A DNA stretch of 64,000 bases from a phage: sequence record PV805630.1; one strand, written 5' to 3'. The translations under genes and the position numbers were made by a program. The notes beneath the pieces were generated by a model. That model did no database searches and had not been told where the DNA came from. It saw nothing but the letters and a program-made list of their open reading frames with translations. Shown one piece after another: positions 59,694 through 64,000 of the stretch (position 1 is its first letter; the number at the start of each line of letters is the position of its first letter).

Positions 59694-61283
59694 TCACACA
59701 ATGTATGAACGTAGTGGGTTAACACTATCTTCTTCTTCCTCATCCCACATTGGGTCACCCTTGTTATCCACCAAAGTCATACCTGCTTGCGGTTTCCAAG
59801 GATTGAGATAACCCAGCATGGAGATAGTATCAATACAGTCATCCTTACCTTTAATACCATTAATAGTAGCTAGTTTAATCTGGCCCATGAACAGACCCAT
59901 AATAGTTGTATCTCTCAACTCTTCCGGGAAGTACATCTTACCAGCTTTGAACCATGGAACTACCAGGTTAAAGCGTGACAGCTTAGAGGTTACAGGACGG
60001 ATGCCAGGCTTACCACCCTCAGAAGATGCAAAGTTAAAGAAGACATTTCGGTTAATCATTTCTTTTTGGAGGAGTGAAATGAATCCACCTTGCTGTCCTG
60101 TAATTTCGACGCCAACGTTTTGTGGCTGGTATTCTTGAACCAGACGGAATAGGTCATCAAAGTTCTTATCCATAAGCTGACGATTAGCCACACCGTCAAC
60201 CCAGAACCAATCTCCGTTAGAACTGTAAGCCCAAACTGATATGACACTATAGTCACTGGTCTGTTTCTCCGAAGTAGCAAAGTCGGTTGTAATATAATAG
60301 TTGTAGCAAGACTTCATCCTTAACAGTTGTTGCCTGCTGTACCATTTAATCTCACTATCCTGAACAAGACGTTCATCTTCGGAGCTAATACGAAGCATAA
60401 GTTCCTGGTAGAAACCAGCTAGCTTACCAGTCTTAACTGCCATGTCGTATTGGGCTTTAATGTAGTCATATGAGAAACGGTCATCCCATGCACCCTGAAA
60501 CTCTTCTCTGCTGCAAGGAAACTTCTCACACACTGGCCATACGTTGACATCCCATGCACCGGACTCTACTGCTTCAATGATAATGTCTTCCTTATTAAAG
60601 GGGGTACCGTTGAAGATTACTTTACGACGTGTTGGGTCAAGAGCATGGTTCACACCTTTATAGACAGTATCCTTAATAGCTTCCATGCTTGTCTTAGAGT
60701 TAGCATCACCATCACTAATCAAGTCATCCAGTACACAGAGTGTTGGACGTTTACCATATATCTTCGTACCACGAAGACCTGTCTTAGCACCAAACAACTT
60801 AACACCCAGTCGATGTCCTTCTGCATTACGGAACTCTAATAGGTTATCCGTAAAGGTAGCTTCAGGTATCCACTGCTGAAGGAACTCACTATTCTTATAA
60901 CGAAACTCAATGTTCTTACGTGCAGACTTAGCACCGTTATCCATTGAGTCAGATACGTAAATCATTCCTTCTACCTTACCTAAACTTGGTAAGTGTCCAA
61001 ACACTGCCAAGAACAAAGTAAAGTATTCCATGAACACAGCAGTCTTACCTGCACCACGGAAACACAGGTTAACTACATACTGGTTCGGGGTAATCATCTT
61101 ATCCAACATCTTCAGGTGAACTGGTGGTGTTTTGTTGGATTCACCTTCTTTGCCATTAACCAACTTAATAAAGTTGGCAAAGGTAAGAGCAAACTGACTA
61201 GGAACATAGTTAGATGAATTAAGGTGGGAGTAATCCACCTGGTCTAGCCATTCATCTAGTTCCTGTTTAATTAACTCAGACAT
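59694..61283 (-). CDS. Terminase large subunit
   Basis: Track start is GTG 61304; in-frame ATG at 61283 follows GAGGA. P-loop-like RGAGKT in the N-terminal ATPase part and acidic nuclease-like C-terminal half. First large gene of the late operon, as in N4. Confidence 0.6.
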   Translation of the reverse strand: MSELIKQELDEWLDQVDYSHLNSSNYVPSQFALTFANFIKLVNGKEGESNKTPPVHLKMLDKMITPNQYVVNLCFRGAGKTAVFMEYFTLFLAVFGHLPSLGKVEGMIYVSDSMDNGAKSARKNIEFRYKNSEFLQQWIPEATFTDNLLEFRNAEGHRLGVKLFGAKTGLRGTKIYGKRPTLCVLDDLISDGDANSKTSMEAIKDTVYKGVNHALDPTRRKVIFNGTPFNKEDIIIEAVESGAWDVNVWPVCEKFPCSREEFQGAWDDRFSYDYIKAQYDMAVKTGKLAGFYQELMLRISSEDERLVQDSEIKWYSRQQLLRMKSCYNYYITTDFATSEKQTSDYSVISVWAYSSNGDWFWVDGVANRQLMDKNFDDLFRLVQEYQPQNVGVEITGQQGGFISLLQKEMINRNVFFNFASSEGGKPGIRPVTSKLSRFNLVVPWFKAGKMYFPEELRDTTIMGLFMGQIKLATINGIKGKDDCIDTISMLGYLNPWKPQAGMTLVDNKGDPMWDEEEEDSVNPLRSYIV

Positions 61284-61965
61284 CTGTAATGTCCTCATCT
61301 GCACGTACTAGTTTAGAACCAGCAATCTCTTTAGTAGGTACGCCACTATTGATTGCATTAATTTGCTGTTCAGCTAATGCAGCAAGTGTCGCCTTGAGGT
61401 CAGTCAACCCAGAGTTCTCCCTTAAGTCCAGATTGATATTAGTTACCTGGTCTTTTGGTTTAGCTAAATGAGTAAGGATTGAGTTAGCTGCATCGCATCT
61501 TACTTTCTCACTTACTGCTGTAGTCATCAGTTCAACCTGAACATTGATAGCCTTCTGATAATTGTCTTGGTTCACAATCCACACTGGAACCAAACTTTGT
61601 TCCATGATGAGGTTAACTAACTTACCTCTGTGATAAGCAGAGACGTAAGCACTAATATCTTTCTCACTGGTTCCTCGGGCTACAAGTTCTGCTTGTCGGT
61701 TAGGGAATGTTTTGAAGTAGGCTTCCTTATTTGAGTAGCCCATGTGTTTGTAAGTCACATACTGAACTGCATTCATGTAGTCCTGTGTCTTAAACTTACC
61801 CTCCTTCATAACGCCAGAGTAAGAGATGAAGTTTTCACGGAATGCTTCAGCAACCAGTTGGTCTTGGGTTATGTTGTTAATTGTGTCTACCAACTCCTGG
61901 CTTACACTGTTCTTGAAGTTAGCAGGTAAGGCATTAATGATCTGCTGCTTAGTTAGCTCTCTCAT
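61276..61965 (-). CDS. Hypothetical protein upstream of the large terminase (possible small terminase subunit)
   Basis: 229-aa ORF overlapping the terminase start by 8 nt; small-terminase call is by position only. Confidence 0.3.
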   Translation of the reverse strand: MRELTKQQIINALPANFKNSVSQELVDTINNITQDQLVAEAFRENFISYSGVMKEGKFKTQDYMNAVQYVTYKHMGYSNKEAYFKTFPNRQAELVARGTSEKDISAYVSAYHRGKLVNLIMEQSLVPVWIVNQDNYQKAINVQVELMTTAVSEKVRCDAANSILTHLAKPKDQVTNINLDLRENSGLTDLKATLAALAEQQINAINSGVPTKEIAGSKLVRADEDITDV

Positions 61966-62136
61966 ACTTATCTCTCTACAAAGTTATGTCTATTAACGAA
62001 GATTCTTTTCTTGGGGTGGGATACCCCTTGAAGAAACTCTAACACACAGTTACACTTTAGTCATGATATAGAAAAAGTTCATGATACTGAATAGTATGTA
62101 ATGTTCCGATGACCCTATTCCCAAAAGGAGTAACCT

Positions 62137-62427
62137 TTGAGAATCTATATGAGAGTCATCGACTCTAAAGACGAATACTCAGAGATAGACCACACCAAAG
62201 CTGGCTTTATGGCTGGCGATATAATCCTTACCCATGACGAAGATACATTCCATGAGTTATCTGGAATGATGCTATTAGAGAACCGTCCTGGTGTTAAAGT
62301 CTTAGAACCACAAGAAACTTACTCTTTAGAAAAGTCTATTCCATCTCTTGTGTTCTTTACAAAATTACCTCATAGTGTCTCCATCAAACGAAGCAAAGAT
62401 AGCGTTCGGATGACGGTGATGATGTGA
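62137..62427 (+). CDS. Small protein, member A of the tandem paralog family
   Basis: TTG start 7 nt after AAGGAG (alternative ATG at 62149). Carries the family motif DIILTHDEDTFHELSGMMLL. Confidence 0.3.
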   Translation: MRIYMRVIDSKDEYSEIDHTKAGFMAGDIILTHDEDTFHELSGMMLLENRPGVKVLEPQETYSLEKSIPSLVFFTKLPHSVSIKRSKDSVRMTVMM

Positions 62428-62576
62428 TTAGTCATACCGCCTAGTAGACAGTGGCGGTACTCGTAAAGAGTTAATAACTTCTACAGTCAGGGTTCCCCGG
62501 CTCCTTTCCTACTCCGTAGGTCTAACGGTACATAAGTACCTAGGGGGGTGAACTGACCCGTGATTGAAAACGGTAA

Positions 62577-62614
62577 GGGGTAGAGTCGAGAGGCTCTACC
62601 CCATTTCTTTTTCT
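62577..62614 (+). terminator. Rho-independent terminator between paralog-array genes A and B
   Basis: Perfect 9-bp stem ggggtagag / ctctacccc followed by atttctttttct. Confidence 0.55.
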
Positions 62615-62628
62615 GGAGGCATGAAATT

Positions 62629-63027
62629 ATGAGCATCTACGCTTTTGATATTGATATTACTGGAGTACTCCGTAAACAGGAACCCTATTACCTTGGGGAA
62701 CCAGAAGTAGTAAGTAAGTTCACTGCCCCGTCACAATCAGTATTCTTACCAGATTGCGAAGAGTCCCATGAAGTAATTGGTTCTCTTTTTTTATCCAACC
62801 TTCAACTTAACACTGTGATATTGTCTGAACCAAGGGTGTATGACCTTACCTATTATGATGGGTTTAACGAGTTCTTCCCTGGTATACGCTTCTATAAGAT
62901 AGACGGTTGGGAATTGATAGCTGACCATAACGTCTTTAATAAAACACTTTCAATTTACTTCAGACCTATCCCTAAAGGAAGGAAAATCAATCATGAAATT
63001 CATAATGACTATCCCCAGTTTTGTTGA
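62629..63027 (+). CDS. Small protein, member B of the tandem paralog family
   Basis: ATG after GGAGG; motif SVFLPDCEESHEVIGSLFLS. Confidence 0.35.
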   Translation: MSIYAFDIDITGVLRKQEPYYLGEPEVVSKFTAPSQSVFLPDCEESHEVIGSLFLSNLQLNTVILSEPRVYDLTYYDGFNEFFPGIRFYKIDGWELIADHNVFNKTLSIYFRPIPKGRKINHEIHNDYPQFC

Positions 63028-63307
63028 GGGGGAATCCATGTATACAACTGACTTCACCTTAGAAGAGGTCATGAATAGCAACTCTCAGCAAGTAATCCTG
63101 GTTCCTACCTTAGAGGATTATCACGAAGTAAGGGGTCAACTCTTCTTAGCAGGCAATGACCGTAAGGTTGTATGTATTATTCCTCCTTCTGTCTATACCA
63201 ACTATAACGCTAATGACCCCATACCCTACATGCTGGTATCAGATAAATACCAATGGGATAGTCGTTATGAGAATGATGAATATCATTACTACTATGTAAG
63301 GAAGTAG
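62993..63307 (+). CDS. Small protein, member C of the tandem paralog family
   Basis: ATG after AAGGAAGGAAA; motif VILVPTLEDYHEVRGQLFLA; overlaps the upstream gene. Confidence 0.35.
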   Translation: MKFIMTIPSFVEGESMYTTDFTLEEVMNSNSQQVILVPTLEDYHEVRGQLFLAGNDRKVVCIIPPSVYTNYNANDPIPYMLVSDKYQWDSRYENDEYHYYYVRK

Positions 63308-63310
63308 GGT

Positions 63311-63631
63311 ATGCACCTGTACTGCCTGATTAGCTATGCCACTACCTGTTATCTATCCCCGTATACAATGGATAATATTCTGGCAGGTAAAAGGGGAGTT
63401 ACCACCATCCTATATGAACCAAGTGAAGAAGCAGAAGTATTCCTAGGTACTTGCTTAATGCTGGGGCAACCTATCCAATTCATTAAGATAGTGGATTCTG
63501 TGGAAATACCAGAGCACACCTGTGTGTACATACTGTCTGATAATGAACCTATGGTAGCTACTACTCTTACAGGTAGACTCATTACCCTATATCCTTCTAC
63601 CCCATATTTATCTAGCGACGAGAGCCTCTAA
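63311..63631 (+). CDS. Small protein, member D of the tandem paralog family
   Basis: Motif TILYEPSEEAEVFLGTCLML. Confidence 0.35.
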   Translation: MHLYCLISYATTCYLSPYTMDNILAGKRGVTTILYEPSEEAEVFLGTCLMLGQPIQFIKIVDSVEIPEHTCVYILSDNEPMVATTLTGRLITLYPSTPYLSSDESL

Positions 63632-63633
63632 TC

Positions 63634-63927
63634 ATGTATGTATATTGGGTAGTATCCCCCTATGATGAAAGGATAGGTACATCCTCCATCAGAATGTTAC
63701 CAGGCACGGACTGGTATAAGTTCGAACCAGGTACAGCAACTATCTATGTGCATCCTGACATTGACTATCACTACATCCAAGGTGAATGCATCATCCTTGG
63801 TAAACGAGCCAAGTTAAGAGAGTGTCTAGATAATTACCGTATCAAGGAGCGAGGAGTATACATCCTAGCCCGTAATTACAAAGCAGCATTGGAGTTACTC
63901 CGGCCTAAGTATTCCCCTCCTATTTAA
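63634..63927 (+). CDS. Small protein, member E of the tandem paralog family
   Basis: Motif TIYVHPDIDYHYIQGECIIL. Confidence 0.35.
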   Translation: MYVYWVVSPYDERIGTSSIRMLPGTDWYKFEPGTATIYVHPDIDYHYIQGECIILGKRAKLRECLDNYRIKERGVYILARNYKAALELLRPKYSPPI

Positions 63928-64000
63928 CTGCTTATAAGTGAGATAATTATAATATTTTTGCATGTCAAAATTGTGATAGCTATGTATGGCTACAGTGGTG

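Follow-up and report, generated by a model that had tools for sequence, protein, structure and literature searches.

RESULTS

A right-end array of five small genes in a G7C-like phage

The DNA analyzed here is a 64,000-nucleotide (nt) stretch of phage sequence record PV805630.1, referred to below as the window, and our subject is a tandem array of five small plus-strand open reading frames (ORFs) near its right end. As judged by sequence comparison, the window is that of a G7C-like Gamaleyavirus (Schitoviridae, Enquatrovirinae), an N4-like coliphage; the region is 96.6% identical to G7C with 85% of the query covered and 86% identical to PhAPEC7 over its full length. The array is located at the right genome end, between the packaging genes gp68/gp69 and the terminal repeat, and it is transcribed away from gp69, in the same orientation as in G7C, N4, isolates, and metagenomic loci.

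A preliminary description of this DNA had reported five consecutive plus-strand genes encoding 96–132 amino acids (aa). All five ORFs were found with unchanged coordinates and in tandem order, but the genes are not contiguous, since a 201-nt non-coding gap separates ORF1 from ORF2–5. ORF1 (62137..62427, 96 aa) is the ortholog of N4 and G7C gp70 and matches phrog_7213. ORF2 (62629..63027, 132 aa), preceded by a GGAGG Shine-Dalgarno sequence, is the ortholog of N4 and G7C gp71 (phrog_9160). ORF3 (62993..63307, 104 aa) corresponds to G7C gp71.1 (phrog_11661) and ORF4 (63311..63631, 106 aa) to G7C gp71.2 (phrog_12099). ORF5 (63634..63927, 97 aa) is the ortholog of PhAPEC7_81; it matches no PHROG and has no counterpart in G7C or N4. 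These last four genes are tightly packed, with a 35-nt overlap between ORF2 and ORF3 and then gaps of 3 and 2 nt. The PHROG matches of ORF1–4 (E 1e-41 to 3e-66) fall into four separate families of unknown function, and cross-matches of the array proteins to phrog_16338 were also observed.

ORF1 begins with TTG at 62137, and this start is probably correct: an AAGGAG Shine-Dalgarno sequence lies 6 nt upstream, the TTG aligns with the ATG of N4 gp70, and the same start has been chosen by gene callers in public assemblies. G7C gp70 (L001:1750) is annotated from an internal ATG instead of the TTG.

The five ORFs belong to one protein family

The preliminary description had regarded the five genes as paralogs on the strength of a core motif visible by eye. 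That motif is insufficient by itself. Smith-Waterman alignment of the 10 ORF pairs, judged against 500 shuffles, set only two pairs clearly apart from background, ORF2-ORF3 (z 8.2) and ORF4-ORF5 (z 9.2); two further pairs were marginal (z 3.0–3.5), and the remaining six were at the level of noise. Pairwise alignment was thus inadequate as proof of paralogy. Profile-profile comparison of shallow alignments, built from nine close relatives, gave two weakly joined groups, one comprising gp70, a distal gp70-like type, gp71, and gp71.1 (group A) and the other comprising gp71.2, ORF5, and a subfamily designated c11 (group B). This result was superseded when more diverse sequences were brought in.

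Iterative jackhmmer searches were carried out on 563 local six-frame ORFs together with reversed decoys. The runs started from ORF2, ORF3, ORF4, or ORF5 recovered all five window ORFs, and the run started from ORF1 recovered four, missing ORF4. Each run collected 79–90 plus-strand array ORFs, 72 of which were common to the five runs, and included neither a reversed decoy nor any other ORF of the 64-kb window. Profiles from which the tested subfamily had been removed still detected that subfamily at E values of 1e-5 to 3e-8, with the best decoy at ~0.1; for the individual window ORFs the leave-out values were 1.5e-7 (ORF5), 4.7e-6 (ORF2), 5e-5 (ORF3), 1.2e-3 (ORF4), and 0.011 (ORF1). The group A profile detected group B members at 1.7e-6, and group B detected group A at 4e-5. 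In addition, ORF1 and ORF3 are linked by a BLASTP chain and by their common match to phrog_16338. The iterative searches and leave-out profiles, made with the more diverse sequences, confirm the paralogy: all five ORFs encode proteins of a single ancient, Schitoviridae-specific family.

The preliminary description had not recognized the family, and our searches agree with it. The five ORFs had no match in Pfam, NCBIfam, or PADLOC; the family profile found nothing informative among PDB sequences (best E 0.14); and two word-indexed protein searches returned near-identical Gamaleyavirus proteins only. No sequence or fold similarity was seen between the array proteins and known defense or anti-defense proteins.

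A common predicted fold for ORF3 and ORF4 and a single invariant residue

AlphaFold produced confident models for ORF3 (predicted local distance difference test [pLDDT] 89, predicted template modeling score [pTM] 0.81) and ORF4 (pLDDT 86, pTM 0.76). The structural elements follow one order in both models. An N-terminal strand, which corresponds to the M-x-hydrophobic-Y start that the proteins share, is followed by a short helix, one more strand, a long helix, and finally four to five strands. Fold searches covered the PDB and BFVD. In BFVD, the two models matched one set of independent models, of uncharacterized small proteins from Gamaleyaviruses, Klebsiella phage KP8, and Achromobacter phages, and neither structure nor profile searches matched an enzyme family. 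The members of the family are soluble alpha/beta proteins of ~100 residues; four of the five window proteins are acidic (isoelectric points of 4.3–5.8), and ORF5 is basic (8.9).

Mapped onto the models, the core motif corresponds to strand beta3 and the N-terminal half of helix alpha2, the long helix. The glycine noted in the preliminary description proved to be invariant and is the only residue of this kind in the family, located in helix alpha2. For the motif's proline, acidic residues, and hydrophobic runs, conservation is limited to the pattern, and the His-Glu pair does not extend to the whole family. The gp70, gp71, and gp71.1 subfamilies share a conserved D/E-x-x-H-E pattern, but His-Glu is replaced in the gp71.2 and c11 subfamilies (AEVF, LADF) and is partial in ORF5 (HY).

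Distribution, copy number, and selection

An exhaustive profile search of 1.84 billion cluster representatives (E ≤ 1e-3) returned only 17 proteins, all of ~54–132 aa, and the family is confined to N4-like phages of Escherichia, Shigella, Klebsiella, and Achromobacter. With a hidden Markov model of the family, four members were detected in Klebsiella phage JZBo1 and two each (E < 1e-3), together with weaker candidates, in Achromobacter phages JWDelta and Axy10, all at the same place in the genome. A metagenomic sample of 80 Schitoviridae loci anchored on gp69 gave 83–88 family hits, every one of them oriented divergently from gp69, and no decoy hits. About 22 loci, with gp69 identities to the window protein of 63% or more, contributed these hits, together with one more distant locus, L213.

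The number of copies per genome is two in N4, four in G7C, five in the window, six in Moo19, and seven in PhAPEC7, so that the variation in copy number among relatives is real. The proximal members gp70, gp71, gp71.1, and gp71.2 are stable, whereas the distal part of the array varies among relatives and contains unrelated genes. One of these encodes a protein of ~105 aa with a HELNHF (HExxH) sequence (L002:3225-3539, L005:4232-4546, L006:4377-4706, and others), which had no Pfam match and a weak PADLOC match to mad5 (E 0.0085). Another insert, of 120–125 aa (L005:4751-5113 and L013:4713-5090), gave sub-threshold matches to DUF3440 (E 0.0014–0.05).

The ratio of nonsynonymous to synonymous substitution rates (dN/dS) between orthologs of the five ORFs was 0.06–0.44 at dS values of 0.1–1.4. 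Individually, the ratios were 0.16–0.42 for ORF1, 0.14–0.23 for ORF2, 0.06–0.16 for ORF3, 0.11–0.44 for ORF4, and 0.12 for ORF5 against PhAPEC7. These values indicate real coding genes under purifying selection, and the ORFs are conserved as coding sequences in close relatives. The array had earlier been called fast-diverging, a description that does not hold in view of these ratios and of the occurrence of common subfamilies in N4, Klebsiella, and Achromobacter phages. Because the same subfamilies are found in such different phages, the divergence between the paralogs must be old.

A covarying RNA and an intrinsic terminator between ORF1 and ORF2

The ~185 nt that follow ORF1 (62428..62612, plus strand) correspond to a conserved structured RNA that ends in a strong intrinsic terminator. 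Its predicted elements are, in order, helix P1 (62436–58), with a conserved 11-nt loop (YAGKRGNNNGGU); helix P2 (62459–71), represented by 11 different stem sequences; a single-stranded UAAUAAC..CUACAG motif (62472–88), which reads UAAUAAC..CUNCAG across variants; an anti-Shine-Dalgarno-like sequence, GGCUCCUUUCC (62499–509), with a conserved CUCCUU; helix P3 (62508–20), also with 11 different stems; and helices P4 and P5 (62527–40 and 62558–73). A long-range helix is also present. The terminator (62577–62612) comprises an 11-bp stem (62577–62602) and a T-run.

The 201-nt intergenic region is 92–99% identical among Gamaleyaviruses and thus better conserved than the flanking genes, for which dS is 0.3–0.8. 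The covariance model was built solely from Gamaleyavirus-type sequences and gave full-length matches at N4, Moo19, Klebsiella-phage, and Achromobacter-phage loci, with weaker matches at distant loci. All matches were on the array strand except two weak ones that overlapped a strong match on the opposite strand. The RNA is found directly upstream of a gp71-type gene across Schitoviridae, and at the distant locus L165 it lies between weak family members on both sides. In the resulting alignment, which includes some weak matches, 95.2% of cells were paired, compared with 69% in shuffles and 39–49% in slid controls, and compensatory changes were present in 35 of the 41 pairs; all of these figures are somewhat inflated because the alignment was fitted to the model. 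For the short helices P2 and P3, per-sequence shuffling tests were individually weak, and the alignment-wide covariation count is the meaningful test of this RNA. A scan of viral contigs with a degenerate DNA pattern yielded mostly chance matches and was abandoned in favor of the gp69-anchored loci and the covariance model. Rfam covariance models gave no match at E ≤ 1 in 61900–64000, and no tRNA or tmRNA was found. With its strong covariation, the element is a candidate for a new class of structured RNA.

Some variants (L150, L154, L009, and L147) have an insertion in P2 that forms an extra hairpin with UACCUCCUUA or GCCUCCUUAC; the former is identical to the 3' end of 16S rRNA. A 49-aa minus-strand ORF (62487–62636) runs antisense to the RNA and is almost certainly spurious, as the region is constrained at the RNA level.

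The Shine-Dalgarno sequence of ORF2 lies ~10 nt past the terminator T-run, which leaves no room for a promoter, and a scan found no promoter-like site between the terminator and ORF2. As ORF2–5 have no promoter of their own, their expression would depend on readthrough of the terminator. In the window, CUCCUU can by inspection be paired with the 5' arm of the terminator, but these pairings are not conserved in L157 or the N4 type, and no convincing conserved alternative (antiterminator) pairing was established.

A conserved promoter candidate upstream of ORF1

The divergent region between gp69 and ORF1 contains a GGGGT-loop-ACCCC hairpin (62013..62027, plus strand), found in all Gamaleyavirus relatives and in N4 as GGGGTTAGCACCCC. 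It abuts the −35 element of a sigma-70-type promoter candidate for ORF1 (62028..62056, plus strand; TTGAAG, 17-nt spacer, TACACT). This candidate matches at 8 of 12 positions and was therefore missed by a simple promoter scan. The hexamers and the 17-nt spacing are kept, with variable spacer sequence, in N4 (TTGCAG/TAGACT), JZBo1, JWDelta, Axy10, and locus L148, and the consensus beyond the window is TTGnnn-17-TAGACT. An extended form of the motif, GTTASACTTTAG, has a single occurrence in the window; this suggests that a regulator site specific to the locus is superimposed on the sigma-70-type promoter. GTTAGACTTTAG was considered as a general middle or late promoter consensus and rejected, as it also occurs only once in the window.

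Conservation of the segment 62013–62136, which comprises the putative promoter and the 5' untranslated region of ORF1, reaches far past the genus. A TTGnnn-17-TAGACTTTAG arrangement followed by a GUCUCCUU...GAGAC hairpin was seen in N4, Klebsiella, and Achromobacter phages.

The locus lacks virion RNA polymerase promoters

In N4, the left genome end enters the cell first, and early and middle transcription brings in the remainder (PMC4496689). Promoters of the virion RNA polymerase consist of a hairpin of 5–7 bp with a 3-nt loop and have A/G at −11, G at −10, and G at −8 of the template strand (PMC4496689). No hairpin promoter of the GC-TCC-GC type was found in 61966–64000. Such hairpins (stem-GC-TCC-GC-stem) were easily found in terminal-repeat and left-end DNA of relatives (L001:3371, 3785, and 4078; L005:5546 and 6316; L013:5631, 6462, and 6718). 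The L013:6462 hairpin has exactly the sequence of its counterpart in the N4 P2 promoter, and G7C has several such hairpins within its right terminal-repeat copy, immediately past the array. A hairpin at 62508 in the window (CCTAC-TCC-GTAGG) was considered as a virion polymerase promoter or replication primer site and rejected: its −8 and +1 bases are unfit, its loop varies in relatives (CCA, CUA), and its stem covaries like an RNA helix.

In view of the absence of virion polymerase hairpins, the conserved sigma-70-type promoter, and the order of genome entry in N4, the locus is most likely transcribed by the host RNA polymerase once the genome has entered the cell. The suggestion of a host-takeover locus, with its connotation of early genes, was not borne out, given the right-end location, the lack of a GC-TCC-GC hairpin, and the conserved sigma-70-type promoter. 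A literature search found no data on right-end transcription for this locus.

A conserved junction at the right border of the array

The array ends at a conserved boundary (63918..63953, plus strand) with a sigma-70-like sequence (TTAACT, 18-nt spacer, TATAAT). In seven phages (the window, G7C, PhAPEC7, F22, G17, Bas96, and Moonfish), the last gene, whichever it is, is followed by the same junction, CCTCC and then TATTTAACTGCTTATAAGTGAGATA..TATAAT (within 63918–63970). Read in another frame, the boundary gives rise to recurrent "...SYLTAYK" C termini. G7C gp71.2 runs directly into this junction, which accounts for the lack of ORF5 in that phage. The boundary looks like a recombination boundary combined with a sigma-70-like promoter facing the terminal repeat.

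DISCUSSION

A right-end module of predicted binding proteins

The reading that we favor, with a probability of about 0.5, is that the locus is a conserved right-end module of N4-like phages in which the host polymerase makes a set of binding proteins and the distal operon is gated by terminator readthrough. The module would consist, in order, of the sigma-70-type promoter, the gp70-type gene, the RNA with its terminator, the translationally coupled gp70/gp71-type array, and the conserved boundary beside the terminal repeat. Once the right genome end is in the cell, the host RNA polymerase would transcribe the array. ORF1 would be expressed alone as a monocistronic unit and ORF2–5 only when the polymerase reads through the terminator, a step probably controlled by the conserved leader RNA. 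The array proteins themselves would not be enzymes but binding modules, and every paralog would have a partner of its own, either a host factor or a component of the phage. This proposal follows from the observation that no catalytic constellation has been conserved while the rest of each protein diverged. Small size, solubility, structural roles of the conserved residues, and a diverged surface all point to binding proteins instead of enzymes.

Several points weigh against this reading. The case for binding modules is drawn from a lack of conserved polar residues, and a small His/Glu site may be functional in the gp70/gp71/gp71.1 subgroup. The common fold was seen in the models of ORF3 and ORF4, to which ORF1, ORF2, and ORF5 are linked by sequence, and the agreement of the two models is partly dependent because their AlphaFold input alignments largely overlap. 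The promoter, transcript ends, and readthrough are predicted from sequence. The terminator may just be leaky, and the RNA may have no connection with the array, being instead a stable small RNA. Searches of the literature for N4 gp70/gp71 function and of phage essentiality screens found nothing relevant.

A bolder version of the favored reading joins the predicted fold, which is absent from solved structures, and the RNA, which is absent from Rfam, into an undescribed regulatory or host-interaction module of Schitoviridae. Here the RNA would sense a signal or a family member and gate the diversified binding proteins late in infection. We consider this extended version improbable.

Alternative roles

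Two other roles for the array are about equally possible. The first is a dedicated anti-defense array, in which each paralog inhibits a different host immune system and the distal variation reflects an arms race. The differences in the distal array between close relatives, with unrelated HExxH and 120-aa genes inserted, would be expected of such a locus, as would the range of two to seven copies, the small, soluble, mostly acidic, and phage-restricted proteins, and a genome-end position typical of accessory regions. However, the proteins resemble no known anti-defense or defense protein, orthologs are under purifying and not diversifying selection, and the gp70/gp71-type position is kept from N4 to the Achromobacter phages, which is more like a near-core function. 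The locus also enters the cell last and lacks early promoters, so the array could counter only late-acting systems. On balance, we regard a dedicated anti-defense array as unlikely.

The second is a phage-intrinsic role at the genome end, in replication, in concatemer or terminal-repeat processing, or in packaging; alternatively, the proteins could be regulators that bind the leader RNA, with gp70, for example, acting as an antiterminator. Copy number and content vary among close relatives and N4 manages with two members, which weighs against such a role, and the proteins, four of five of them acidic, carry no nucleic-acid-binding signature. In its favor are the strict synteny with gp69, gp68 (terminase), and the terminal repeat across subfamilies, the purifying selection, and the layout of a member, the RNA, and one or more further members, which recurs even at the distant locus L165. 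A role of this type seems to us doubtful.

We consider it very unlikely that the proteins are small enzymes, such as metal-dependent hydrolases or nucleases, using the acidic pair and His-Glu of the motif. The conservation of D/E-x-x-H-E in the gp70, gp71, and gp71.1 subfamilies would fit a catalytic site, but with His-Glu absent from gp71.2 and c11 and partial in ORF5, only the glycine is left as an invariant residue; moreover, the motif residues sit at the N terminus of a helix in a generic beta-alpha-beta unit, and the proteins match no enzyme family in structure or profile. That the shared motif arose by chance in unrelated or partly non-coding ORFs, as the 6 of 10 pairwise comparisons no better than shuffles might suggest, is refuted by the decoy-free profiles, the fold common to ORF3 and ORF4 with its database matches, the dN/dS values below 1, and the conservation of the ORFs in relatives.

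Relation to known systems

The direct orthologs of the array genes, at the same position and in the same orientation, are N4 gp70 and gp71 and G7C gp70, gp71, gp71.1, and gp71.2. They have been catalogued as separate families of hypothetical proteins (PHROGs 7213, 9160, 11661, and 12099), which are here united into one family, with ORF5 added. Thus, the sequences are already known as hypothetical genes, as is the general occurrence of tandem small paralogs in a variable end of a lytic phage genome. The libraries searched record neither a one-family, common-fold grouping nor the membership of ORF5. What is new is this unification; the fold, predicted with confidence in the models and without a solved relative; the fixed position and spread across Schitoviridae, as judged from sequence; and the putative module with its covarying leader RNA and terminator.

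Hypervariable small accessory genes are known from the internal-protein locus of T-even phages and from anti-CRISPR gene clusters. The array resembles these loci in having small genes in tandem, related in scaffold and divergent in sequence, in the variation of gene content between close relatives, and in the turnover of content between conserved boundaries. It differs from them in having no sequence or fold similarity to their products, in the conservation of its proximal members across subfamilies under purifying selection, and in its predicted non-early expression; no targeting peptide or regulator gene was recognized.

Terminator-based cis-regulatory leaders include riboswitches, attenuators, and processive antitermination RNAs such as put of phage HK022. 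The locus is similar to them in that a covarying RNA lies just upstream of an intrinsic terminator, which is followed by the Shine-Dalgarno sequence of a promoter-less operon. Unlike them, the window RNA has no Rfam match and doubles as the 3' untranslated region of gp70.

N4 has a classical place among model phages, and therapy-oriented work makes use of G7C-like phages. The results turn four or five hypothetical families into a single target for structural and interaction studies, and the architecture of the locus yields testable predictions on the timing and control of expression. The findings do not yet bear on any long-standing question. The most promising lead of the locus is the intergenic RNA, which would rank among the few cis-regulatory RNAs proposed for lytic podophages.

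The neighboring gene and annotations in relatives

The minus-strand gene next to the array (61276–61965) encodes a 229-aa protein that is 100% identical to G7C gp69 and carries a small terminase subunit annotation in some relatives. In UE-S5a and PBM-3 (L006 and L008), gp71 is unannotated despite an intact ORF. A frameshift has probably broken gp71.2 of UE-S5a (L006:3909-4377) into two ORFs.

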